Below are positions 30,546 to 44,438 of a stretch of 64,000 bases of DNA, one piece after another (within the stretch, counting starts at the first letter, position 1; the number at the start of each line of letters is the position of its first letter). Made by a program: the position numbers and the translations under genes. Below the pieces are notes generated by a model. That model made no database searches, was not told the origin of the DNA, and saw nothing but the letters and a program-made list of their open reading frames with translations. Source of the stretch: a virus; the IMG/VR virus record IMGVR_UViG_3300029825_000749, positions 253-64,252 of that record; one strand, 5' to 3'.

Positions 30546-30735
30546 TAGTTGGCAAGGAGAAGTCTATTTTAGAATTAGTAAACATTTAAACATACCTGTG
30601 AGTGAAGTTATTAAAAAGAAATTCACTCCAGATATAAAATTTTTAATATTTAAATACCACCAACAACTAATTTTTGAAAAAGAAGAAGCAGAGAAAATAA
30701 GAGATATGCAAAGTGAGATGAGAAGTAATGCCTAG
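30508..30735 (+). CDS. Chaperone frameshift extension (gpT-like), +1 frame
   Basis: Open +1 frame FFQIANSWQGEVYFRISKHLNIPVSEVIKKKF...SNA fills the gap to the tape measure gene; no ATG near its 5' end; CTT TTT C slippery site at 30528-30534. Confidence 0.75.
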   Translation: MTNLTRNFFQIANSWQGEVYFRISKHLNIPVSEVIKKKFTPDIKFLIFKYHQQLIFEKEEAEKIRDMQSEMRSNA

Positions 30736-33700
30736 CGCCGAAGATGTAATGATTATGTTTGAGGGGGTAGATAATGTTAGTAATGTTACTTCTGGAATTA
30801 AAAGTGAAATTAATGGAATAGGGTCCAGTGCATCTGCATCTGGAGGTTCTATTACGGGAGCTTTAAGTGAGGCAGCTTCATCTTTCGGTACGCTTAATGG
30901 AATTATTGCAAGTACTGTTGGTGTTCTTGCGGGTAAAAGTTTATCTGATTTAATTGTAGGTAATGCAGAAACAAAAGAAACAAACCAAGTGCTCCTTACA
31001 GGTATGGCTGATACTGAAAGTGGTGTTAATAGTCTTTATGATACAATTGATAATGCTACTAATCAGTCATTAGTTAGTATGAATCAATTAATTCCTGCAT
31101 TAAAAACTTTCAGTGCAGAAACTGGGTTAAATGGATCTTCATTAGAAGAAGTTGTTCCACAATTTGCACAGTTTGGTTCATATATGCTTGCTATGACTGG
31201 CAGTAGTGAAATTGCTACTACTGCTATGACAAAGTTGAGTAATGGGATTTATGGGTCTTCACAATTTCTTAAGAGATATGGTATTAGTCAAGAAGTACTT
31301 AAAGAGAAAGGTTGGAGTGGTCAGGAAGATGATGTAACTGGTTATATGGATGCAGTTATCAAAGCGATTGGTAATACTAATGAATTCATGAATACGACTG
31401 AGGGTGCAGTAATGACTCTTAACAAGAGATTTAGTACTGCAGGTAAATCAATTGGTGAAGAAGTTATCCCTATGATTAAAAAAGCTGCTCAAAGTTTAGT
31501 TGCATTAAATGATTGGTCAGGAGGACAACTTTTTAAGGACTTTCTTTATTTAGCATCAGGTGTAGATATTCTTATAGCTGGTTTGGGGCAATTTACAGTA
31601 ATTGTTAAAGGTTTTGAAAGTGTAATTCAATCACTTAAAGCTTTTGGGGCTGTAGGTACTGCAATAAAATCAAAATTTGTTGGAGCAGATAAATTAGCTG
31701 AAGGTGCTTCTAAAGACAAAGAAGCAGCAGGAAATGCAAAAGTATCGGCAAGTAATAAAGAATTAACTGTAAGTAATGCAGGATTAGCTTCAAGTAATGC
31801 TGAAGTTGGTACTAGTTTTGAAGCTTTAAATGCTATTAAACAATCTACATCAAGTGTTAATGCCTCACTTATAGGTGAGAATGAAGCACTAATTGCAAGC
31901 AATCAAGCATTATCTGAAAGTAATGCTACTGCAGGTGCAACTGGAGAGGTAGATGATGTTTTAGATTTAACTGATATGGAATTAAATAGTGCTGCAAGTC
32001 ATGCGAATACAGTACCTGTTGCAAAAGCACAAAGTGTTCCTACAAATTTAGGTGCAATTGAGAGTGAAACATCACAGGTTGAAAAGAATACTTCATCAAT
32101 ACTAAAGAACAATACTGCTAAATCTGGTTTGAAGAGTAGTGAGAATAATTTAATTAATGGTGTAAAAGATACTGCAGGATCCCTAAGCAAAGAAGGGGAA
32201 ATGATGGGAGATGTAGCGGGCACAACTGGTCTTTTTGGCTCTGGTATAATGGCATCAATTGGGCCATTACTTGCTATAGTAGCAGTAATAGCAGTTGTGG
32301 TAGTCTCAGTTTATGAATTAGGAAAAGCTTTTGGATGGTGGAGTGATGTAGGATCTATGATAGATTCTATAAAATCTGGTGTTCAAAGATTATGGGCAGC
32401 ATTCACCGGTTCGTCTGCAGTTAAAGGAATTGTAAAAACATTACAGATGGGATTCCAAACCCTTAAAAATATTATTGTAGATGTAGGTAGTGTAATCTCT
32501 ACAGTTTTTGGTGAAATCTTTGGATACATGGGTAGTAGTGATCCAGTGAAAAATATAATTAATAGTTTTGGAAAATTACAACCAATAATTAATGGTATTA
32601 GTAAAGCGTTCCAAGGAGCATTTAGTTTTATTAACAGTATACTAGCTAGTTTCATGGATCAGTGGAATGTTTTTGCAAATAGTGATTCTGGTCAAGAATT
32701 ATTCGCAGCCGTTAGACAAGCTTTTCAAGCAGTAGGTCAAGCTTGGAATCAATTACAACCTGCAATAGGACAAATTGTTAGTGCTTTTGGACAATTATTT
32801 GGAGCTATTACAGGTAAAAGTAGTGGTGGGGGTTCATCCAATATTGCCGCCATAATGGTTCAAGTATTAATTTTAGCATTAAAAGGAGCAGTTGTAGTTA
32901 TACGTACATTTGCAACCGCGATACAAATAGTAGCATCAGTGATTAGTGCTGTTGCAGGAGTTATAACTAGTATTGCTGGTGCTATAAACTGGTTACGGGG
33001 AGCATTTAGGAATATAGGTGCTTCAGTACAACATGCAGGACAGATGATAGCGAACTTCCCAAAATATCTAGCTAACCTACCTGGAAAAATAGGACAATTC
33101 ATCACATCCTCTTTACAAAAGATTCTACAATTTGCATCTAAGATGAAAACAAATGCGATGAAAGCTGGAACGAATTTCCTTAATGGAATAATAAATAATA
33201 TTAAAACCTTACCTAGTAAATTATGGAATACCTTACTTAAAGCAATACAAAAGCTTTTACAATTTGATACTAAAGGAAAAGTCGAAGCAGTAAAAGCAGG
33301 GATGAATATTGTAAATGGTGTGATTAACTGGGTTAAACAATTACCTGCAAAAATAGGGCAATGGTTTACAAGTGCGGTTGGAAGAATCTTGAACTTTGTT
33401 GGACAAGCATTAGCAAATGCTCAACAAGTAGGTATGAGTGCAGTAAATGGTGTGATTAACTGGGTTAAAACATTACCTGGTAAAGTTTATAATGAATTTA
33501 TAAAAATTGGACAAAAAATTCATGATTCAGTTTCAAGTGCAGTATCAGCTGCAACAAGTTTTGGATCTGATATTGTAAATGCAGTAATGGGAGCATTACA
33601 CATTGCATCCCCTGGTATAATTCAAAGAAGTATAGCTAAAGAATTTGCAGATATACCTAAAAGAATAAGTGAAAGCAATAGTGATGCAGAAGGAAGAAGT

Positions 33701-34042
33701 AAAAGCTTTGCAGAAAGTATTAAAAAAGGATTTGGTAAACCTAAACTCAACGTTGGAACAGCATTGAACCTTAAAACAAATAATGCAAGCCCCATGGCAG
33801 ATTATCAAAAACATTTGCAGAATCAATTAAAACTTAAAACACAAGCAGTAAACCTTGCAGCTGGTGGAGTAAAAGCTATTGGTGGAACTCAAATTGTGCA
33901 AAAACATGTTCATTTAAGTAAAGGTGCCGTACCTATAGATGCAAGGAATATGACACAACGTGAAGCTGAAAAAGTTGTAATAAGTGCACTTGAACAATGG
34001 GGAAACACTTCAACAACAACATCAACAAATGGGGGTGTATGA
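30728..34042 (+). CDS. Tape measure protein
   Basis: 1104 aa, Ala/Gly-rich helical, with periodic aromatic repeats (WVKQLP..IGQW). Confidence 0.92.
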   Translation: MPSAEDVMIMFEGVDNVSNVTSGIKSEINGIGSSASASGGSITGALSEAASSFGTLNGIIASTVGVLAGKSLSDLIVGNAETKETNQVLLTGMADTESGVNSLYDTIDNATNQSLVSMNQLIPALKTFSAETGLNGSSLEEVVPQFAQFGSYMLAMTGSSEIATTAMTKLSNGIYGSSQFLKRYGISQEVLKEKGWSGQEDDVTGYMDAVIKAIGNTNEFMNTTEGAVMTLNKRFSTAGKSIGEEVIPMIKKAAQSLVALNDWSGGQLFKDFLYLASGVDILIAGLGQFTVIVKGFESVIQSLKAFGAVGTAIKSKFVGADKLAEGASKDKEAAGNAKVSASNKELTVSNAGLASSNAEVGTSFEALNAIKQSTSSVNASLIGENEALIASNQALSESNATAGATGEVDDVLDLTDMELNSAASHANTVPVAKAQSVPTNLGAIESETSQVEKNTSSILKNNTAKSGLKSSENNLINGVKDTAGSLSKEGEMMGDVAGTTGLFGSGIMASIGPLLAIVAVIAVVVVSVYELGKAFGWWSDVGSMIDSIKSGVQRLWAAFTGSSAVKGIVKTLQMGFQTLKNIIVDVGSVISTVFGEIFGYMGSSDPVKNIINSFGKLQPIINGISKAFQGAFSFINSILASFMDQWNVFANSDSGQELFAAVRQAFQAVGQAWNQLQPAIGQIVSAFGQLFGAITGKSSGGGSSNIAAIMVQVLILALKGAVVVIRTFATAIQIVASVISAVAGVITSIAGAINWLRGAFRNIGASVQHAGQMIANFPKYLANLPGKIGQFITSSLQKILQFASKMKTNAMKAGTNFLNGIINNIKTLPSKLWNTLLKAIQKLLQFDTKGKVEAVKAGMNIVNGVINWVKQLPAKIGQWFTSAVGRILNFVGQALANAQQVGMSAVNGVINWVKTLPGKVYNEFIKIGQKIHDSVSSAVSAATSFGSDIVNAVMGALHIASPGIIQRSIAKEFADIPKRISESNSDAEGRSKSFAESIKKGFGKPKLNVGTALNLKTNNASPMADYQKHLQNQLKLKTQAVNLAAGGVKAIGGTQIVQKHVHLSKGAVPIDARNMTQREAEKVVISALEQWGNTSTTTSTNGGV

Positions 34043-34432: not shown

Positions 34433-35608
34433 GTGATTGAGGATAAAACAAGTATAACTGAAACACCTGCAAGCACAAACAAATATGTAGACACAGTAAA
34501 ACCTGTGTATGGAGAATATCCTATAAAAAGGGTTTTAAATGAGGAGAATGTTGCTGAGAAAAAGAAGTTAGATAAAAAAAGAAAAGAAGCTGAGAAAAAG
34601 GCTAAGGAAAAAGCAAAAAATGCAGCTTCAAAATCTTCAACAAGCACTGATGAAGAGGGTAATACAGAAAGTACAAAATCTTCATCTACATCCTCATCCT
34701 CTTCAAACTCAAGTAGCTCCTCAAGTTCCAGTAGCTCCTCAACTGATTCTTCAAGTTCCAGTATGAAATCATCATCTAAATCTACAATGTCCTATGGGAC
34801 AAATACTATAGGTGCAATAGCTGCTGGTAAGAAAGGAACAGAATCTGAAAAATTAGATGAAATCTTAAAAACCATTAAAGAGGATGACACTACTTGGACT
34901 GATGAAGATGGTAAAAAGAAAAAGAAAACTTTAGTCAAAGAAGATTTATCAACATCAAAGGCGCAGAAAAATCCTTTTGTGGAAAAAATCCTAAGACCTC
35001 TACAATCTTCAATGAAAGAAGGAATGTTAGAAGTGTACGAAACTGATGAGGAAAACTTCACTCCTTATGAATCTACACCTGAAGAAGATGAAAAAGATAA
35101 GGATAAAGACACTGAAGATGAAGAGGAGGACACTGATGATGAAGAAACAAGTGGTGAAGATGCAACAAGTGATGAAGAAGAAATCACTTATCATCAAGGA
35201 GAAATCCTTAGTACCTCCTACTATCCTTTTAATTTTAGCTACACTTTTGATACGGATTACACTGAGGGAACAGGTGAATCAAAGGTAGATTCATATATAT
35301 TCACTGATGAAGATCTAAATTATATTTACAAAGGTGTACGAGTCTTATTGAAGCTGGGTTGGTTACAATTTGGTGAAAAGTTACCGACAAATGATACTGA
35401 ATTGAAGAAAATCAAAGCAGATATTACAAATAGTGTGACTGCAAAGATTACAAAATTATTCAATCAAAAATGGGCATCACAGAAGAAAGCATATAAAGAA
35501 TACGAAAAAACAAAAGCCGAACAAGAAGCAGCAAAAGCTCAAGCAGAAGCAAGTTCATTAACAAGCGACACGGATGAAGATAGTGGTACTACAACTGAGG
35601 AGAATTAG
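34433..35608 (+). CDS. Baseplate hub-like protein, fragment 1 (Ser-rich and acidic linkers)
   Basis: Ordered core YHQGEIL...YKGVRVLLKLGW among low-complexity tracts; hub position. Confidence 0.55.
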   Translation: MIEDKTSITETPASTNKYVDTVKPVYGEYPIKRVLNEENVAEKKKLDKKRKEAEKKAKEKAKNAASKSSTSTDEEGNTESTKSSSTSSSSSNSSSSSSSSSSSTDSSSSSMKSSSKSTMSYGTNTIGAIAAGKKGTESEKLDEILKTIKEDDTTWTDEDGKKKKKTLVKEDLSTSKAQKNPFVEKILRPLQSSMKEGMLEVYETDEENFTPYESTPEEDEKDKDKDTEDEEEDTDDEETSGEDATSDEEEITYHQGEILSTSYYPFNFSYTFDTDYTEGTGESKVDSYIFTDEDLNYIYKGVRVLLKLGWLQFGEKLPTNDTELKKIKADITNSVTAKITKLFNQKWASQKKAYKEYEKTKAEQEAAKAQAEASSLTSDTDEDSGTTTEEN

Positions 35609-36727
35609 ATGGTAAAGAAGATTAAAGCAGGAAAATCTAGTAATTATTACACTCGACAATCTAATGGTAATTATATCCTCAGAAAAAAATCTGGACAAAT
35701 CATAACAGTTATTAAAAAGGGTTCGGCTCGTGCTAAAAAAGTAAGTCAAAGAGCAACAACATCTTCAGCAAATAGAATAACAAAGAAAGTAAGTAGTAAG
35801 AAATCTTCAAGTAAAAAATCTACATCATCATCTTCATCAAGTTCGTCATCATCTAGATCCTCTGAATCTTCAAGTTCAACTGGAAGTACAACGAGCACTG
35901 ATGGTACAAGTACAGATTCAACATCAACTGAAGAAATTACTCCTACTGGAATTACAATAACATTAAAGCAGTCACTTAAACAAAGCAAAGAAGTGATGAA
36001 ACAAGTAATCAAAGAAAACATCGATGAGGAATATGAAGAAGCTACTACTGGATTAACACATTCCTTACATGGTTTTATATGTGATAGTCAATTTACTTTA
36101 GATGGGTCTGAATTAACACTGGGAGCTTATGATAAGTTACTAGCTAAAAGTGATAAATTAACGTATACTGAAATGTTACGTTCACAAATCCTTGATGAAG
36201 TGATTATGACTGCTGGTTTAATACCTGTAGTGGATTTCACAGATTTAACTGATGAAGTGATTAGTTGGACAAGTGTATCCTCATCAGGCAGTAAGGATAG
36301 TGGTGATGCTCAAGGTGATGGAAGTATGACAGAACAAGAGGCTTGGGATTGGGCTAAGAAAGTACCATACAATCATGGTACTAGTACTCATGATCCTAAG
36401 GAGGCTTATGATAAACTTAATAGTGGTACTGGTGCTGATTGTTATAGTTTAACAGCTGCATTGTATTATATTTTTAATTATAAGGTTGGTATTAAGGCAC
36501 GAGATATTTGTTATCATTCTCCTTATGCAAGTAGTGGTTCTCATCATACTATTCAGTTATATAGGAATGGTTCTTGGGATGATTGTGCTGATAAGTATAG
36601 GTCTTATACTAGTACTAATTTTCATGTTATTAGTTCTCGTTCTGGTGAGCATGTTTGCAGAGAATCTGGTGGTACAAGTTCTAGTTATCCTGCATATAGT
36701 AGTTGTCCTTATAGTAATAATGGTTAA
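35609..36727 (+). CDS. Hub fragment 2 plus C-terminal Cys-His-Asp (transglutaminase/Pei-like) peptidase
   Basis: HGFICDSQF...SQILDEVIMTAG...ISWTSV core; DCYSL...HHTIQLYRNGSWDD triad. Confidence 0.65.
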   Translation: MVKKIKAGKSSNYYTRQSNGNYILRKKSGQIITVIKKGSARAKKVSQRATTSSANRITKKVSSKKSSSKKSTSSSSSSSSSSRSSESSSSTGSTTSTDGTSTDSTSTEEITPTGITITLKQSLKQSKEVMKQVIKENIDEEYEEATTGLTHSLHGFICDSQFTLDGSELTLGAYDKLLAKSDKLTYTEMLRSQILDEVIMTAGLIPVVDFTDLTDEVISWTSVSSSGSKDSGDAQGDGSMTEQEAWDWAKKVPYNHGTSTHDPKEAYDKLNSGTGADCYSLTAALYYIFNYKVGIKARDICYHSPYASSGSHHTIQLYRNGSWDDCADKYRSYTSTNFHVISSRSGEHVCRESGGTSSSYPAYSSCPYSNNG

Positions 36728-36839
36728 AAAAAAACAGATTCCCATTTAATATGAAAGATATACTACTAATTGAGAAAAATAAAAATGTTCGAAATTAGAG
36801 TTAAATTATCCTAAAAATTGGTATAGATGTTTTTTCATC

Positions 36840-37190
36840 AATTTTTTTACTTCCAGGTAAGACACATTGTTTACTTTACCATTTTGTAAATATTTCCATA
36901 CTTTGATTAAGACTTTTTCCTCTCAATTGTTCAATAGAAAAAAATTTTCGAAAAAAATGTAAGTTTTTGCTTGTTTCATGGATATTATCAATGAAAGTTT
37001 TATTCCAAAAAGTACAAATGAGGATCCTTCATAAGATTGAGTGCATATATAATTATTTCAATAGGTATAATTTCAAGATTTCTACATAATTTTATTTTTT
37101 CTTAAATAGGACATTTTTAATGAGAGTGTAACAATCTCTCATTATTTTCCCTATGGTAAATTGAGCAGTTACACGCTGGTTTACCTAACA
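36840..37190 (-). pseudogene. Decayed Prim-Pol fragment homologous to the 4041..6842 primase
   Basis: 36840-37020 reads HLYF/WNKTFIDNIHETSKNLHF...LRGKSLNQSMEIFTKW*SKQCVLPGS versus primase aa 127-182; one frameshift and one stop; weaker similarity out to about 37190. Confidence 0.88.
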
Positions 37191-37395
37191 TTTTATCACC
37201 TAAAAAAAAAATAAATAAATTTATTTGAAAAAATAGAAGATATTTTTGAGTTTGAGGAGGGGAGTTTACCCCCCCTCTTTCTAAATTCTTCAATGTAACC
37301 TTTTAAGGTTTAATTCCTTAAGGTTGCTAAAAAACCCCATATATTTTATTTAAATTCATATACAATCTGGTCATGTTATAAAACAAAAAAATTGT

Positions 37396-37480
37396 GTGAG
37401 TATATCCAAGTCTGGTCAAAGGGTGCAGGTTTAGATCCTGTTGCTTTAGTGCTTCGTAGGTTCGAATCCTACTGCTTATA
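37396..37480 (+). tRNA. trnL: tRNA-Leu (TAG)
   Basis: Acceptor GTGAGTA/TGCTTAT; anticodon arm GCAGG-TTTAGAT-CCTGT; long variable arm; T arm GTAGG-TTCGAAT-CCTAC. Confidence 0.88.
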
Positions 37481-37483
37481 TCA

Positions 37484-37553
37484 CCACAGATGTCAGTTCA
37501 AATCTGGCTTAAGTAATACGTTGCTTGATAGTATAATCTGGTGATTACAGTGG
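37484..37553 (+). ncRNA. Circularly permuted tRNA-like RNA (T arm, closed acceptor stem, D arm)
   Basis: CCAC-AGAT-[GTCAG TTCAAAT CTGGC]-TTAAGTA-A-TACG-T-TGCTTGA-TA-[GTAT AATCTGGTGA TTAC]-A-GTGG. Confidence 0.65.
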
Positions 37554-37925
37554 ACAATTCATACTCCCCTTATTAGCTCGAGACAATGATAAGGGAGCTA
37601 TATGGTTGTAAATAAATTCAAATGTTTCCTCTCATGCTGAGTTTAAATCTCAGGGGAAACTATTTTTATATCAAATCTCCCGTTCTTTATGGAAAATGTA
37701 TAATGGAAAGGCATACATTAAGGGGGAATCATTTATTTTTTAGATTTCCCTATTTCCTCATACATTTAAATAAGCGATTAATAATCATATGGTATTGTAT
37801 GCCCTCTAATAATTTAAACTATTTATGCTGGGTTTGGGGGCGATAGCTCCCAGCTACCACTTTAAAATTTAGTAAATAATTTCATGAAAAAGAGTAAATT
37901 GGTAAATATTTATACTCTTTTCAAA

Positions 37926-37996
37926 GGATTTATAGTGTAATGGTAACATAGAGGATTCCAAACCCTTTAATGTCAGTTCGATTCTGACTAAGTCCA
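37926..37996 (+). tRNA. trnW: tRNA-Trp (CCA), intronless
   Basis: GGATTTA/TAAGTCC acceptor; loop TTCCAAA; T arm GTCAG-TTCGATT-CTGAC. Confidence 0.88.
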
Positions 37997-38202
37997 TTTT
38001 TTTCAAATATTCGATAATTCTGAATAGTTCAGTTGTAAACTATTAGTTGACAACTTAATTTTATCACAAAGTGGTAAAGTAAAATACCACAAAATAGTAA
38101 AGTGATTTACCCGAAAATAGTCCAGTAAAAAAAATCTTCAAACAAAATTTTAAGTAAATAAAGCACGTATGAATTCTAAAAAGTTATTTAAAAACTAAAT
38201 AG

Positions 38203-38229
38203 GGTTTATTAAGGATTCCTTAATAAACC
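38203..38229. promoter_or_regulatory. Perfect 12-bp inverted repeat upstream of the XRE gene (operator candidate)
   Basis: GGTTTATTAAGG-ATT-CCTTAATAAACC, ending about 20 nt before ATG 38251. Confidence 0.55.
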
Positions 38230-38250
38230 TCATGAAGAGATATAAAAAAC

Positions 38251-38622
38251 ATGTTTAATAATCAACATATCACACAACGATTAAAAAAACTAAGAAACCA
38301 ATACAACATCACCATCAAAGAATTATCTCAATACTTACAATTAACTCCTAAAGAAATAAGAGAATTAGAAAATGGTGAAAAAACATTAACAATAAGCATC
38401 ATGGACAAACTATGTAACCTTTATGGTTGCAGTGAAGAATACTTACTATGCCAAAACAATTTCTATGATCCCCACCATTTCATTCATAGTAAAAACGAGT
38501 TAAAAGATTTAGGTGCGATTGCAGCAATGAACACTATAATAAGCAACATACAATTCCTTGATAAAGCATACAATGATTTTAAAAGTAATCTTATAAAAGA
38601 ATTAGAAAAGAATGATGACTAA
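38251..38622 (+). CDS. XRE/Cro-C1 HTH transcription regulator
   Basis: LKKLRNQYNITIKELSQYLQLTPKEIRELENGEK. Confidence 0.88.
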   Translation: MFNNQHITQRLKKLRNQYNITIKELSQYLQLTPKEIRELENGEKTLTISIMDKLCNLYGCSEEYLLCQNNFYDPHHFIHSKNELKDLGAIAAMNTIISNIQFLDKAYNDFKSNLIKELEKNDD

Positions 38623-38800
38623 TAGTTTAGAAGCAGAATATTATTTTGGAATCAAAACAGTAATAGAAGACACTACTACTTTTGATAATTACTGGAGAAA
38701 TGTAAATGCTCATTATTTATTCAACAAATACTACACCCACTTTAAAAAGGTAAGTCATAAATCAGAACACCAATTTTATAAACAATTTCAACCACCCTAA
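38612..38800 (+). CDS. Small hypothetical protein
   Basis: Overlaps the XRE stop. Confidence 0.4.
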   Translation: MMTNSLEAEYYFGIKTVIEDTTTFDNYWRNVNAHYLFNKYYTHFKKVSHKSEHQFYKQFQPP

Positions 38801-38925
38801 AAAAAAGTATGTTGCTATGAACACATTTTGGACACTTAACATTTTAACCACACTTTATTCCTTAAATCAAATTCTAAGTAAGTTAAACCATTTTGAATGA
38901 CCATATTTTTATACATATTATATGA

Positions 38926-39000
38926 GCTATTATAACACAATTAAGTTAGTGCAATCCCTGCGTAAGGGATAGGTTGTAGGTTCGAGTCCTGCTAATAGTT
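38926..39000 (+). tRNA. trnT: tRNA-Thr (CGT), degenerate or possibly pseudo
   Basis: GCTATTA/TAATAGT acceptor, ATCCC-TGCGTAA-GGGAT arm, canonical T arm; but G33, no D-loop GG, and A10-C25 mismatch. Confidence 0.65.
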
Positions 39001-39059
39001 TTTTAAATACACTTAAAAAAGTGTAATGAAAACATGAAAATTTTAAATACACTGAAAAG

Positions 39060-39260
39060 ATGATGAATTTATTACAAAATCTTGAAACAATTCCTGCTGA
39101 CTATGGGAAAATTCAGGGCAAAAAGGATATTGAAAAATTTAGGAAGAATATAATAAACACGACAGATGAAGAGGAGTTGAGAGAGGAATATGTTGAGAAA
39201 ATTAGGAGAATTGAATTAGAAAAATCTATACTGCTAAGAGATTTAGATGAATTCTTCTAA
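39060..39260 (+). CDS. Small charged protein ending in a PIP-box-like LDEFF
   Basis: 66 aa; C-terminus ILLRDLDEFF. Confidence 0.5.
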   Translation: MMNLLQNLETIPADYGKIQGKKDIEKFRKNIINTTDEEELREEYVEKIRRIELEKSILLRDLDEFF

Positions 39261-39331
39261 GGAGAATTAAAAATAGAAAATCTAAAGTTAGTTTAGTATG
39301 GACAACTAAAAAAAGGAGTTGATGAGAAAGT

Positions 39332-40069
39332 ATGGCTGATGATACAATAACAGTGAACATGATGCCCTCTTGTGGATCTTGCAAAAATCAAAGTGATTAT
39401 CAAGGTTACAAGAAGTACACAAAAACTTGGAAAAACCTTTGTACCAGTACAACATGTAAAAGCAAAACACCAGGAACATTGCAAAACAATCCAAAAGGAA
39501 CATATGAAGGAGAATTGACTTGTAGTAAGTGTGATAGTGATTATTGTGGTTTTTGTGGTACTGAGAAAAGTGGTAGTGCAAGATTTAAACTAGTAAGTGC
39601 AACAGCATCAACTGAAAAAACAGATACTAGTGATACAGGAACAACCTCTGGCAGCACCTTTTGGGATATGATACTGGATCTTATCGGACCTTTGGATGGG
39701 GAAATTGAATGTCGAGTTGAAGGAGATAAAGTTTTCATAAATAAGATTCCAGAACCTGAAGAATCCGAGTTATGGATAAGAGAAGGTATTAATGTCACTG
39801 ATGATAGTATTACAGTAACAGATTACAATCCAGATACTTACAATACATTTGTGATTAGTTGGGCAGGTGGAACAATTGTACTCACTGATAAAAAAATGAT
39901 TGAAAGGTTCGGTGAGAAGATCCTCGAGAAAGATGCAACAAAAGAAGTTGTCACTTATGAAGCAAAAACAATCAGTACAGATACATCAACCGATAGCAGT
40001 ACTGATACTTCAACCAATAGTTCAAGTACAACAGACACAGATAGCAGTACAACAGATTCAACAGGATAA
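39332..40069 (+). CDS. Cys-rich domain plus hub fragment 3
   Basis: Eight Cys in aa 14-76; core TFWDMILDL...CRVEGDKVFINKI...DYNPDTYN; Ser/Thr/Asp tail. Confidence 0.6.
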   Translation: MADDTITVNMMPSCGSCKNQSDYQGYKKYTKTWKNLCTSTTCKSKTPGTLQNNPKGTYEGELTCSKCDSDYCGFCGTEKSGSARFKLVSATASTEKTDTSDTGTTSGSTFWDMILDLIGPLDGEIECRVEGDKVFINKIPEPEESELWIREGINVTDDSITVTDYNPDTYNTFVISWAGGTIVLTDKKMIERFGEKILEKDATKEVVTYEAKTISTDTSTDSSTDTSTNSSSTTDTDSSTTDSTG

Positions 40070-40086
40070 AAAGGTAATTTAATTGA

Positions 40087-40815
40087 ATGGTTAAGAAGAT
40101 AAAAGCTGGGAAATCAAGTAACTATTACACAAGGGAAAAGAATGGTAATTATGTCCTAAGAAATAAGAATGGTTATAAAATTGGTTCAGTAATCAAGAAA
40201 GGATCAACCCGTGCAAAGAAAATTACATCACGTGCTACAACATCTTCTGCGAGTCGAGCAACAAAAAAGGTTAGTAGTAAAAAATCTTCAAGTTCATCAA
40301 GTTCAAGTTCTGGATCTTCAACATCATCAACAAGTTGGAGCAGTGCAGATTCATCAAGCACAACTGATAGTAGCAGTAGCACCAGTACAACACTAGTTGC
40401 AGTGAAAAAAGAAGTACTCATAGATAATTATGATGATGCTTACAAGTTTGCAAAAACAGAATTCTACAAAGCACGAAGAGATAACAAACACACCCTTGAA
40501 TGTAAAGTCATTGGATCTGGAAAATGGAAACAAGGAAAATGGGCATATTGCTATATTCCAGATTACAAAATCAATATGTATATGTACATCACCAAAGCAT
40601 CACATGAAATCGATGATGATGGTAAATGGTTAACAAGTTTAACCTTACAAGATTATCCCCCATCACTTAGTTCCGGTGATAGTCATGATCCAATAAAATC
40701 TGATGATAACAGTAGTGATACAAGTAGTGAGCAAGGCACAGATGATGATGGAACAAACACAACAACTACAGACTACACTATTTCTTCAACTTCCTCAACA
40801 AGCAGTACAGGATAA
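40087..40815 (+). CDS. Hub fragment 4 (C-terminal barrel)
   Basis: KARRDNKHTLECKVIGSGKWKQGKW...TSLTLQDYPPSL; N-terminal module shared with 35609. Confidence 0.6.
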   Translation: MVKKIKAGKSSNYYTREKNGNYVLRNKNGYKIGSVIKKGSTRAKKITSRATTSSASRATKKVSSKKSSSSSSSSSGSSTSSTSWSSADSSSTTDSSSSTSTTLVAVKKEVLIDNYDDAYKFAKTEFYKARRDNKHTLECKVIGSGKWKQGKWAYCYIPDYKINMYMYITKASHEIDDDGKWLTSLTLQDYPPSLSSGDSHDPIKSDDNSSDTSSEQGTDDDGTNTTTTDYTISSTSSTSSTG

Positions 40816-41024
40816 ATATGATGATTTAATCTATAATTTTAAAAAAAATTTATTATATTCCTCTTTTGTTTTTTTATAAATTCATTAAATTGGATTGGTA
40901 TATTCAATTATTTAATTATTAAATTAACTTATAAACACTTATATTAAATCAATACTAAAAATGGGAATAAGAAAACTTAAGTTATTTAATATATTTTAAA
41001 AATATTGAAAGGGGTATTAAAAAA

Positions 41025-42758
41025 ATGGGATCTGAAAAAACACTTTGTAAATGGGAAAATAATGATTGGAAAATAAGATTAGAAGCAATATTAGAAATAG
41101 ATGATGAGCAATTGTTAATGAGTATTGCAAAAAACGATGATAGTAGCAGTGTACGTGCTGCTGCAACAGATAAAATCACTGATGAGCAATTGTTAATGAG
41201 TATTGCTAAAAATGATCCAGATGAAGATGTACGAGTAGCAGCAGTATATAATATTAATAATGAAAACTTTCTAATTAGTGTTGCTAAAAATGATAAAGAC
41301 TGGACTGTGCGCTCAGCAGCTGCAGAAAAAATCACAACTGAAAAAATCTTAATAAGTATTGCTAAAAAAGATCCAGATGAGGATGTACGAGCAGTAGCAA
41401 TAGAAAAAATCACAGATGAACAAATATTAGAAAACATTGCACAAAATGATAAAGACTGGACAGTCCGTGAAATAGCAGTAAAAAAAATAACTAATGAAGA
41501 ACTTTTAATTAGTATTGTTAAAAATGATGAGAATAATAATGTTCGAAAAGCTGCAATAGAAAAAATAGATGATGAAAAAGTTTTAATCACTATTCTAAAA
41601 AACGAGGAAGATACTGAAGTAATTAGAGCAGTAATCGATAAAATAGATGATGATGAAGTTTTAATCACATTTGTTAATAACAATCCAGATTCCTGTACTG
41701 TTAAAAGTGCAGAAAAAATATTTGATGATGAAACTTTAATCAAAATAGCACAAAAAAATACAAACAAAGAAACACGTAAAGAAGCAGTTAGTAAAATTTA
41801 TAATGAAAAAATTCTACTTAATATTGTAAAAAACGATTCTGATGTAAATGTTCGATTAGAAGCTATTAAAAATATAATTGATAATGATATTTTAAAAGAG
41901 ATTCTTTTTGATTCAGATGATTATGATGTTTGTGCTACTGTTGCATGTAAATTGGATAATGATATTTTAAAAGGTATTGCTTTAAGTTCTCATGATACGG
42001 ATGTTTGTGTTGTTGCTGTTAGTGGAATAAATAATAATTCCTATCTAAAAGATATTGCTGTAGAAAGTGATGATAGGGAGGTTTGTCTTGCTGCTGTTGA
42101 TGCGATAAGTTATAATGATGATTTAAGAGATGTTGCTTTGGAATCTGGTGATGGGGAGGTTTGTTTGGCTGCTGTTGGTAGGATGAGTGGTGATTTTTAT
42201 TTAAGTGATGTTGCTTTGGAATCTGGTGATAGGGAGGTTTGTGTTGCTGCTGCATGTAAATTGGATGATGATGATGTTTTACATGATATTATTTTGAATA
42301 ATGAAGATGGTAAAGTCCATCTTAAAGATATTGAAAAAATAAATGATAATGAAATTTTAAAAGATATTGCTTTAAGTTCTCATGATACGGATGTTTGTTT
42401 GGCTGCTGTTGGTAGGATGAGTGATGATTCTTATTTAATAGATGTTGCTTTGGAATCTGGTGATGGGGAGGTTTGTTTGGCTGCTGTTAAGAAGATAAAT
42501 GATGAGGATATTTTATTTAAGGTTGCTATGGGGTCTGATGGTAAGGTTGGTGTTGCTGCTGTTAAGAAGATAAATGATGAGGATATTTTATTTAAGGTTG
42601 CTATGGGGTCTGATGGTAAGGTTGGTGTTGCTGCTGTTGGTAGGATAGATGATAAAAATCGTTTAGTTGATATTGTTTGGGATTCTAATGATGAATGTGT
42701 AAATATGGCTGCTTTTGAGAAGCTAGATGATGAGGATATTAAAAAATTTTTCTCATAA
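41025..42758 (+). CDS. HEAT-like alpha-solenoid repeat protein
   Basis: About 20 repeats of 25-26 aa (L..IAKND.D..VR.AA..KI.DE). Confidence 0.85.
   Translation: MGSEKTLCKWENNDWKIRLEAILEIDDEQLLMSIAKNDDSSSVRAAATDKITDEQLLMSIAKNDPDEDVRVAAVYNINNENFLISVAKNDKDWTVRSAAAEKITTEKILISIAKKDPDEDVRAVAIEKITDEQILENIAQNDKDWTVREIAVKKITNEELLISIVKNDENNNVRKAAIEKIDDEKVLITILKNEEDTEVIRAVIDKIDDDEVLITFVNNNPDSCTVKSAEKIFDDETLIKIAQKNTNKETRKEAVSKIYNEKILLNIVKNDSDVNVRLEAIKNIIDNDILKEILFDSDDYDVCATVACKLDNDILKGIALSSHDTDVCVVAVSGINNNSYLKDIAVESDDREVCLAAVDAISYNDDLRDVALESGDGEVCLAAVGRMSGDFYLSDVALESGDREVCVAAACKLDDDDVLHDIILNNEDGKVHLKDIEKINDNEILKDIALSSHDTDVCLAAVGRMSDDSYLIDVALESGDGEVCLAAVKKINDEDILFKVAMGSDGKVGVAAVKKINDEDILFKVAMGSDGKVGVAAVGRIDDKNRLVDIVWDSNDECVNMAAFEKLDDEDIKKFFS
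42480..42629 (+). repeat. Exact 75-bp tandem duplication
   Basis: 42480-42554 is identical to 42555-42629. Confidence 0.85.
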
Positions 42759-43049
42759 TATTTAATGATGATCTTCGTGAATTAGCTAAAGCAAAATTGA
42801 AACAGTTAAAATAATAAGCATATTAATAATTCTTAAAGAATATTAATATGATTTTTTAAATATTTTTTTACATTTAAATTTAATAAGATAAGTTATATTT
42901 TTTTAACTTTTCTTAGAATGAATTTTTTATTTTTTTTTATTTTAAGGTGGTTGTAAAAGGCCATATTCTATTTTTTTTTACATTTTTAAAGGGAAATATT
43001 AATTTTTGAGTTAGTTTAAATAAATTTTTAAGGTTTAATATAATAATTT

Positions 43050-44438
43050 ATGGTTAAGAAAGCACAAGATGTAGTACTAACACCAGGAAGAGGACCTATA
43101 GCATTAAACAATGTTATAAATCAGATTGGTGGAAAAGTAACTGCAAAAGAAGTGAAAAGTAAAAGTGAAAACTTGAAGATCCGTACTGGAAAAGTAGTGC
43201 GTTTTTATCCTCAAACTGATAAGGTTAGTGTAAAGTTGGATGATACTGGAAAAATTGTACGATGTGTTATGCTTCATAACCTTGCAGTTTCAGGGGAAGC
43301 TACTATTAGTTTCACCCCTTCAGGAAGCATAAGTACTGATGTGGAAAATGATAATGAATATTCCATTATACCTTTTAATGAGCATATAGTAGCAGTATTA
43401 AATATTAAGGATAGTTTAAATAAATCTGAGTATTTATGTTTAGGGTTTATTAGTAGAGATAGTTCGCTTATTAAAAGTAATGGTGAAGTTGGAGAGTATT
43501 TGGTTTCTAATGATAATAGTAAAGTTAGTGTTAAGCAGTCACAGGTGAATATTGAGAGTGAAAATTTATATTTGAATGGTAATAGGATCCAAGCTACTGA
43601 TGAATTATCTAAGATTTTTGCAACTAAAGAGGATGTGGTGTGTACTGTGAAAAGTTTAGTAAGTGATAGTGCAATCACAACTCCACCATCCACACCAGCT
43701 GCTGATGAAGAAGTTCAAGTAAATACAAGCTCTCAGGTAGATACAGAAATAGAAGCTTTGAAGGAAAGATTATCAGAAATTGAAAATACTACAACAAGTG
43801 AGAAATCTGAGATTAGTTTTAATTCTAACATTTCCAATAATGAGGAGATTTTAACTGGAAAAGTTTTAATAATAATCCTAAAGAATGCAGTTACAAATGA
43901 GTTAGCAGTTGATGAGAATGTTAGTGTAATCTTAACAAGATTCAGTGATAATCAGAGTAAGACTTATGCAGGAACAACTGATAGTTTAGGAAATTATAGT
44001 CTACCTCTTAATTTATCTGCAGGGGCTTACACTTATCAAATAATTTATAATGGATCTAATATTTATAAGGCAAAAACTGGTGAAGTGGTGAAATTCATGA
44101 TAGGTGCAGGCAGTGACGATGGGAAGAAAAGTATCTGCTTTGAAAGTAATATCAAAGATAATGAAAGTATTACAAAAGGGAGTATAATCACCTGCAAGTT
44201 CACAGACTGTACAAATGGAGTAGCATTAACAGGATTAACAGGAAAATATATTTTAACACGATTAAGTGATAATCAAAGCAAAACTTATGCTGAAACAACA
44301 GATAATTTAGGAAATATGATTATAACAATTAATCTTTCAAAAGGAGATTATTCGATACAAGCAAGCTATGATGGTGATGAAATTTACAGTAAAAAAACTG
44401 GTGAAGTAATAAAATTCAAGGTGGGAATAAAAGAATGA
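43050..44438 (+). CDS. Baseplate spike (gpV/gp45-like) with two Ig-like C-terminal domains
   Basis: N-terminal OB-like TGKVVRFYP..DKVSVKL; two repeats of LTR.SDNQSKTYA.TTD.LGN...NLS.G.Y....Y.G. Confidence 0.7.
   Translation: MVKKAQDVVLTPGRGPIALNNVINQIGGKVTAKEVKSKSENLKIRTGKVVRFYPQTDKVSVKLDDTGKIVRCVMLHNLAVSGEATISFTPSGSISTDVENDNEYSIIPFNEHIVAVLNIKDSLNKSEYLCLGFISRDSSLIKSNGEVGEYLVSNDNSKVSVKQSQVNIESENLYLNGNRIQATDELSKIFATKEDVVCTVKSLVSDSAITTPPSTPAADEEVQVNTSSQVDTEIEALKERLSEIENTTTSEKSEISFNSNISNNEEILTGKVLIIILKNAVTNELAVDENVSVILTRFSDNQSKTYAGTTDSLGNYSLPLNLSAGAYTYQIIYNGSNIYKAKTGEVVKFMIGAGSDDGKKSICFESNIKDNESITKGSIITCKFTDCTNGVALTGLTGKYILTRLSDNQSKTYAETTDNLGNMIITINLSKGDYSIQASYDGDEIYSKKTGEVIKFKVGIKE

Follow-up and report, generated by a model that had tools for sequence, protein, structure and literature searches.

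A duplicated, strongly constrained basic module on the split tail-hub proteins of a clade of Methanobacteriales viruses

The stretch of viral DNA analysed here (64,000 nucleotides, positions 253 to 64,252 of IMG/VR record IMGVR_UViG_3300029825_000749; hereafter the window) comprises nearly the whole of a 69.3-kb provirus record, whose nearest annotated relative in GenBank is Caudoviricetes sp. vir080, from the human gut and with Methanobacteriales as its recorded host. Within it lies a tail module of the myovirus type, in which a tape measure gene is followed by a gene for a small protein, the hub genes, a spike-like gene and a gp25-like gene. The hub is spread over four open reading frames (ORFs) on the + strand: ORF1 (34433–35608), ORF2 (35609–36727), ORF3 (39332–40069) and ORF4 (40087–40815), the second and fourth being taken from ORF prediction and translation. 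ORF2 and ORF4 begin with the same basic module of ~52–64 amino acids, a resemblance that a first, purely sequence-based reading of the window (the original prediction) had already picked out, and it is this module, and the proteins that carry it, that concern us here.

ORF1 is the upstream fragment of a first hub gene and ends, after a helical segment, in an acidic tail rich in serine and threonine (the last ~21 residues, 35543–35605) and a TAG stop codon. ORF2 opens with the folded core of the first module copy (residues 1–52, 35609–35764; 90.5 bits against a hidden Markov model (HMM) of the module, with the fold deduced from a model of the second copy), and continues through a basic Ser-rich extension and a Ser/Thr linker (approximately residues 53–113, 35765–35947, as delimited by charge and Ser/Thr profile) into a hub part (35948–36283) that is 91% identical to its counterpart in the related virus L003. 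Its C-terminal domain (36284–36727) resembles cysteine peptidases of the transglutaminase-core type: the match to PF01841 is sub-threshold in the window (E 0.027), and the positional homologue in L004 matches with 38.8 bits (E 1.2e-9). ORF3 is the upstream fragment of a second hub gene and also ends in an acidic Ser/Thr tail (39953–40066). ORF4 consists of the second module copy (residues 1–53, 40087–40245; 80.8 bits against the HMM, and modelled with AlphaFold2), a basic Ser-rich extension and Ser/Thr linker (approximately residues 54–104, 40246–40398, delimited as in ORF2), and a hub C-terminal domain resembling the end of YqbQ/XkdQ which, according to its matches to PF24032 and phrog_400, occupies 40399–40815 together with an acidic Ser/Thr tail that terminates in STG.

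The two module copies align over residues 1–64 and nowhere beyond, with 49 identities in 64 positions (77%; BLASTP, E 7e-25), and the genome contains exactly two of them, an HMM scan of all six frames revealing no third. The module has 18–19 Lys/Arg and 0–1 acidic residues (isoelectric point 11.0–11.6), a net charge of +14 across the first 50 residues, and conserved Tyr/Trp. Residues 1–16 are identical between the copies, and the eight codons that differ among them (GTA/GTT, ATT/ATA, GCA/GCT, GGA/GGG, TCT/TCA, AAT/AAC, ACT/ACA and CGA/AGG) account for 9.0 synonymous and 0 nonsynonymous differences; that all nucleotide differences in this stretch are synonymous had been reported in the original prediction. 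The proportions of synonymous and nonsynonymous differences over codons 1–49 (pS and pN) are 0.83 and 0.16, and omega is ~0.05 over codons 1–29. At 36 degenerate codons for identical residues the copies use a different codon 22 times, where independent draws from the codon usage of the virus would give 18.7; because the codon differences match this expectation, synonymous sites can be regarded as saturated and the similarity as being held at the level of the protein, and for the same reason the duplication must be old and recent gene conversion between the copies is ruled out. With such an omega and such saturation, the earlier claim of selection on the peptide is well founded: the module is under strong purifying selection. 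The adjoining extension (RATTSSAxRxTKKVSSKKSSS, codons 48–68; 35750–35812 and 40231–40293) is 90% identical between the window copies and unlike both copies in L003, its codon choice being randomised all the same, a pattern suggestive of protein-level co-evolution within the genome or of an old conversion.

Constraint of this strength bears on the possibility that the module does nothing at all, being a neutral remnant of a duplication or insertion, an artefact of a wrongly called start, or one component of a recoding device such as a split intein, a translational bypass or the read-through of a stop codon. Far from being absent or unconstrained in relatives, the module has been kept in three lineages of viruses, and its start is fixed in both copies because an in-frame stop directly precedes each ATG (TAG at 35606–35608 and TGA at 40084–40086). 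In favour of recoding is the arrangement of ORF1 and ORF2, which share a frame with the TAG alone between them, so that read-through would produce a fusion of 764 amino acids, as well as the common ending of ORF3 and ORF4 (...STG, coded ACA GGA TAA). However, the in-frame abutment is not kept in L003, where a 119-nt gap and another frame separate the two ORFs, and the ORF3|ORF4 junction of the window itself has a 17-nt gap and a frame change. The shared STG ending, to which the original prediction had drawn attention, is present in the window and does not extend to relatives: among them only the ORF4 ending is conserved, and ORF3 of L003 terminates in ...VSTN. The module motif may bear a faint likeness to the C-terminal half of a split intein; such a fragment was considered and rejected, as Pfam gave no intein match to E 10, the module closes with a conserved V-x-K-x-G-S and so lacks a terminal Asn, and no N-intein lies upstream, where the tails are of low complexity only. 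We regard these explanations as largely refuted, and the chance that one of them will turn out to be correct as very small.

The structure of the module was predicted from the ORF4 copy with AlphaFold2, using a six-sequence alignment (predicted local distance difference test, pLDDT, 84.7; predicted template modelling score, pTM, 0.66; 82–85 in pLDDT over five models). The model is a confident one, with strands at residues 4–6, 13–16 and 22–25, additional bridges at 31 and 36 and a helix spanning 41–52, and according to it the module is a folded mini-domain, a small beta-meander followed by a basic helix, rather than a disordered charged tag. Across the wider module family the turn residues N19, G20, G29, G38 and S39 are invariant and the aromatic positions stay Tyr or Trp.

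Neither the sequence nor the predicted fold leads to a known family, in agreement with what had been suspected from the letters alone. Pfam and NCBIfam returned noise only (DUF5766, E 0.056; Ntox21, 0.04; YdeI, 0.049). Foldseek with the module model found no match in PDB or BFVD at E < 0.1, a wide VIA fold search gave single propeller blades at a best Z of 3.8, and the ESM Atlas gave single propeller blades or WG-type hairpins at template modelling (TM) scores of about 0.5–0.6, all of these being queries with 56 residues, which have little power for so small a domain. There was no match to PMBR (PF09373) for four module copies in a Pfam-A hmmscan to E 10, and no Pfam match of the window module to GW/SH3b (PF13457), the closest folds being the propeller blades just mentioned. 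A fold like that of carbohydrate-binding modules (CBMs) was not found either in these fold searches of limited power, the tail-tip scaffold context of such modules being present. The bulb-type lectin domain (B_lectin, PF01453) was rejected as a candidate, because the module has one motif-like stretch only, as against three tandem QxDxNxVxY subdomains, and no Pfam match.

An exhaustive profile search of 1.84 billion representatives with the module identified one true module cluster. Three other matches (an Ig-repeat protein, B_lectin repeats and a low-complexity repeat) were set aside as short motif resemblances summed over many repeats; the score of P0022, for instance, adds up six repeats of a short resemblance. 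Among 5.8 billion proteins there are 7 module-bearing clusters, all of them ORF2-type or ORF4-type hub fragments, and all from one narrow clade of Methanobacteriales viruses. Genome contigs and metagenome contigs, scanned with the module profile, gave no match, and IMG/VR gave only L003/L014 and L015. We found no paper on this module or on this split hub in the literature. To judge from these searches, the module is a new orphan domain family.

That its carriers are hub fragments, as had been proposed, is borne out by fused homologues and by matches to PF24032. ORF4 matches this YqbQ/XkdQ-like hub family with E 1.7e-4 and 21.6 bits (cut-off 27), and only at profile positions 232–293; five of 15 homologues match it as well (best E 4.9e-8), and ORF4 further matches phrog_400, annotated as 'tail protein', with E 2.3e-5. 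A sequence search of PDB with alignments of the hub gave no match. In L004 and vir080 the two hub genes are unsplit, and only Ser/Thr linkers, and no module, are found at the sites in question: the first gene (350–355 amino acids) unites the C-terminal part of ORF1 with the ORF2 body and the transglutaminase-core peptidase, and the second (421–435 amino acids) unites ORF3, a Ser/Thr linker and the ORF4 hub domain. Fusion of ORF1 with the ORF2 body is seen in L004, L005, L006, L012 and L013, and the hub part of ORF2 is continuous with the C-terminal part of ORF1 in the 350-residue gene of L004 and in P0025 and P0026, which are 70–73% identical to the ORF2 body; in P0005, P0013 and vir080, ORF3 and the hub domain of ORF4 form one protein. 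From these unsplit relatives it follows that both hub genes are broken in the window virus, and that each break consists of a stop, a module and a Ser/Thr linker.

The relatives also reveal what else can be found at these places. In L003 the four ORFs are arranged as in the window, and both modules are present. L010 is split at the same two junctions, with hub cores 48–92% identical to those of the window; its downstream fragments begin within the linker (MPDTT...), and its upstream fragments each end in a basic module of ~90 amino acids and of the type KKGERY...NGK, the copies being 95% identical as proteins despite many synonymous differences. L012 has a module related to this type on ORF3 only. 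Comparison with hhalign found no relation between the window family and the L010/L012 type, whose L010 representative matches the GW domain weakly (E 0.015–0.021, under the Pfam threshold); an AlphaFold2 model of it was of low confidence (pLDDT 61) and was not used. As a side observation, the L010 copies (L010:7680–7967 and L010:9903–10190) use different codons at 56 of 87 identical residues, against 43.8 expected (z 2.7), copy 1 preferring G/T-ending codons and copy 2 A-ending ones, which could mean that the two have different origins or that homology at the DNA level is selected against in direct repeats. L006–L009 and L015 combine a divergent version of the window module on ORF4 with a further basic module (...WYVNLGN..KKSIGWK), which ORF3 and ORF4 both have at their C-terminus, and L005 has, at the same two C-termini, a YYEKPS-type module that is not markedly basic. 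The L005 clade also has a break elsewhere in the first hub gene, after VYETDEENF and upstream of the GFxLHQGEI segment (L005:5222–5479 and L005:5497–6609), with no recognisable module; a Gly/Leu-rich motif lies on either side of this extra break (GGLLGGIL / LEGILGGG), and many homologues (P0035–P0039) begin MGF(L)D..TGG. The replacement modules at the same junctions usually occur twice per genome.

The original prediction had described the module as a leader, and indeed it is N-terminal in the window, in L003 and in L006/L015. The description does not survive the ORF4-type protein of L013, in which a Ser/Thr linker leads to a C-terminal member of the family (E 2e-9) and the N-terminus carries a second, divergent one (E 1e-5); because of this C-terminal copy the module is better regarded as a position-independent domain, one that is always joined through a Ser/Thr linker and is always on hub fragments. 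And since related viruses have non-homologous modules at the same places, it behaves as an exchangeable cassette.

It is tempting to see in the modules a means of putting a broken hub back together. The split between ORF1 and ORF2 falls within the hub domain, so the two halves must reassemble, and the module could be an assembly or docking tag that binds the partner fragment, for instance as a charge zipper, or that pairs with another module and thereby cross-links the fragments. Across the loci examined, modules are present at all the split ORF1|ORF2 and ORF3|ORF4 junctions, one or more at each, and at none of the fused ones, a correlation to be read with the relatedness of the lineages with split junctions in mind, as their splits are not independent events. 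In the window the Ser/Thr-rich tails upstream of the modules are acidic, as originally noted (isoelectric points 4.3 and 4.1 for ORF1 and ORF3, net −6 each), and could thus meet a module of charge +14. Yet acidic tails upstream of the module occur in the window only, the corresponding tails being at net +3 and 0 in L003, +10 in L006 and +7 in L013 and hence not complementary, which weakens the charge-zipper part of the original prediction. Moreover, the same module stands at two different junctions and hence has no pairing specificity; ORF1 and ORF3 have only low-complexity tails in common and thus no common element for recognition; modules are also found at the natural C-terminus of ORF4-type proteins in L005, L006 and L013, which is not a fission site; and self-pairing of two highly basic domains is unlikely. 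When the module was modelled in complex with ORF3 and the hub domain of ORF4, the prediction scored 0.00, that is, 'no answer', to which we attach no weight either way. On balance we consider a docking role unlikely, though a serious rival to the reading preferred below. The idea can be put more generally: where a hub gene has broken at a Ser/Thr linker, its fragments might need small sticky domains on the new ends in order to reunite, and the modules, together with the unrelated ones at the same places in sister viruses, would then be natural 'fission tags'; alternatively, the module might be the founder of a new class of domains that bind pseudomurein or a wall polymer. Both are bolder proposals, and we hold them to be doubtful.

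Duplicated, under purifying selection, restricted to hub fragments, independent of position and replaced by other modules in relatives, the module may instead be an interchangeable, linker-tethered accessory module that binds the host envelope, and this is the reading we prefer, as a tentative one for which the case falls somewhat short of probable. The module hangs on a Ser/Thr tether of 40–50 residues from two baseplate hub fragments, and there would be six copies per tail tip if the hub is trimeric. Its ligand would be some envelope component of the host with a negative charge, perhaps the pseudomurein wall or an associated polymer, and binding would keep the tail tip, and with it the Cys-peptidase-like domain of ORF2, fixed to the wall in the course of infection. 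The splits in the hub genes are at Ser/Thr linkers, and the modules sit on the free ends so made. We are led to this preference by the tail-tip site, the flexible tethers, the two copies per genome, the constraint, the module swaps and the presence of a wall-peptidase-like domain on the same polypeptide; the pairing of module and transglutaminase-core-like peptidase in ORF2 is the layout usual for a wall hydrolase with a binding domain, and the fact that paralogous modules stay alike within a genome fits a shared target. The other suggestion of the original prediction, a module that binds DNA or the cell wall, would also be compatible with these observations.

Several points count against such a role. 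The presence of a module at every split junction could reflect the re-association of fragments as well as free ends that accept modules; in profile and fold searches the module resembles no known family that binds walls, sugars or nucleic acids, PMBR, GW, SH3b, LysM and CBMs included; the fold drawn on here depends on an alignment of just six sequences; and the high positive charge could equally serve the binding of DNA or of an electronegative tube lumen. In this last case the module would bind an internal component of the virion, whether the tape measure protein, the DNA end or the electronegative lumen of hub or tube, which it would plug until its release at infection, and the extreme positive charge, the hub location and a tether long enough for the channel might all be understood in that way. 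However, swaps for unrelated modules in close relatives are to be expected of parts that face the host sooner than of parts with conserved internal partners, the L005 module of the YYEKPS type does not share the strongly basic character, and the fold searches showed no similarity of the module to known DNA-binding folds, so that an internal partner seems to us rather improbable.

Some features of the surrounding region can be described more briefly. The tape measure gene (30728–34042) is followed by an ORF of 143 amino acids and then by ORF1 and ORF2. The hub cluster is interrupted between ORF2 and ORF3 by an island of 2.6 kb (36728–39331) with three tRNA genes, for tRNA-Leu(TAG), tRNA-Trp and tRNA-Thr(CGT), and a helix-turn-helix gene; the matching interval is ~790 nt in L003 and contains one ORF of 90 amino acids in L010. 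The N-terminus of ORF3 (39332–39600) is Cys-rich and zinc-ribbon-like (CxxC ... C ... C ... CxxC ... CxxC), and is 86–92% conserved in L003 and L010; L004, L005 and vir080 have an unrelated N-terminal domain of ~170 amino acids in its place. In the region 40816–43049, between ORF4 and the spike-like gene that begins at 43050, lies a HEAT-repeat gene (41025–42758) with AT-rich flanks; in L003 the spike-like gene directly follows ORF4, so the HEAT-repeat gene of the window looks like an inserted moron. The spike-like protein (43050–44438) has 462 amino acids, with two C-terminal Ig-like (Big_3_5) repeats, compared with 246 amino acids in L003 and 229–245 in L006/L010.

To our knowledge, hardly anything is known of the ways in which the tailed viruses of methanogens with pseudomurein walls recognise and breach their hosts. 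The present work defines a strongly constrained new domain of ~50 residues, together with several analogous ones, on the hub proteins of the tail tip of such viruses. If these modules bind the methanogen envelope, they would be candidates for domains that target the Methanobrevibacter of gut and rumen, for instance beside lytic enzymes of the PeiR type, and the principle of accessory binding modules on baseplates would extend from phages of Gram-positive bacteria to archaeal viruses. If they prove instead to be tags that reunite fragments, they would amount to a natural system of protein-fragment complementation that has repeatedly arisen in the baseplates of archaeal viruses. In any event, hub genes that have broken repeatedly at Ser/Thr linkers and carry modules on the resulting ends provide a clear natural case of structural virus genes splitting and gaining domains.

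How do these proteins compare with known systems? The carriers resemble the hubs of the YqbQ/XkdQ (PBSX) and P2 gpD types in that they are hub parts, in the match of the ORF4 C-terminal domain to the end of PF24032 and in gene order, but the hubs known so far are single polypeptides and carry no tethered basic module, whereas the window virus has four hub fragments where its relatives have two hub genes. Among wall-anchoring modules, the GW/SH3b type (PF13457) is similarly basic, aromatic-rich and beta-rich, and the L010 module has its weak GW match; the window module, however, gave no GW or SH3 match in the sequence searches or in the fold searches of low power, and hhalign does not link it to the L010 module. 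The pseudomurein endoisopeptidases PeiW and PeiP combine pseudomurein-binding repeats with a transglutaminase-like Cys peptidase. ORF2 is reminiscent of them in having a putative binding module at its N-terminus and a transglutaminase-core-like peptidase at its C-terminus, and in the pseudomurein-walled host, but it differs in that its module has no PMBR match, that a hub domain lies between module and peptidase, and that its own PF01841 match is below threshold.

The closest parallel in organisation may be the binding modules that decorate Dit, Tal and other tail proteins of phages of Gram-positive bacteria (PMC6669499, PMC7291167, PMC7533335). The CBM decorations of Gram-positive siphophages, on 'evolved' Dit, Tal and the neck passage structure, are likewise small accessory modules on conserved tail-tip scaffolds, variable among close relatives, multicopy per virion and near a tail-associated wall hydrolase. 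They differ in having recognised CBM or BppA-like folds, in being placed in loops of an unsplit Dit or Tal, and in that saccharide binding has been demonstrated for them, whereas the window module is an apparently orphan basic fold of ~50 amino acids on a Ser/Thr tether, located at termini that arose through fission of the YqbQ/gpD-like hub of an archaeal virus. The accessory module on a baseplate protein is thus a known theme; what is new is the orphan domain family, here combined with the fission of hub genes in archaeal viruses.

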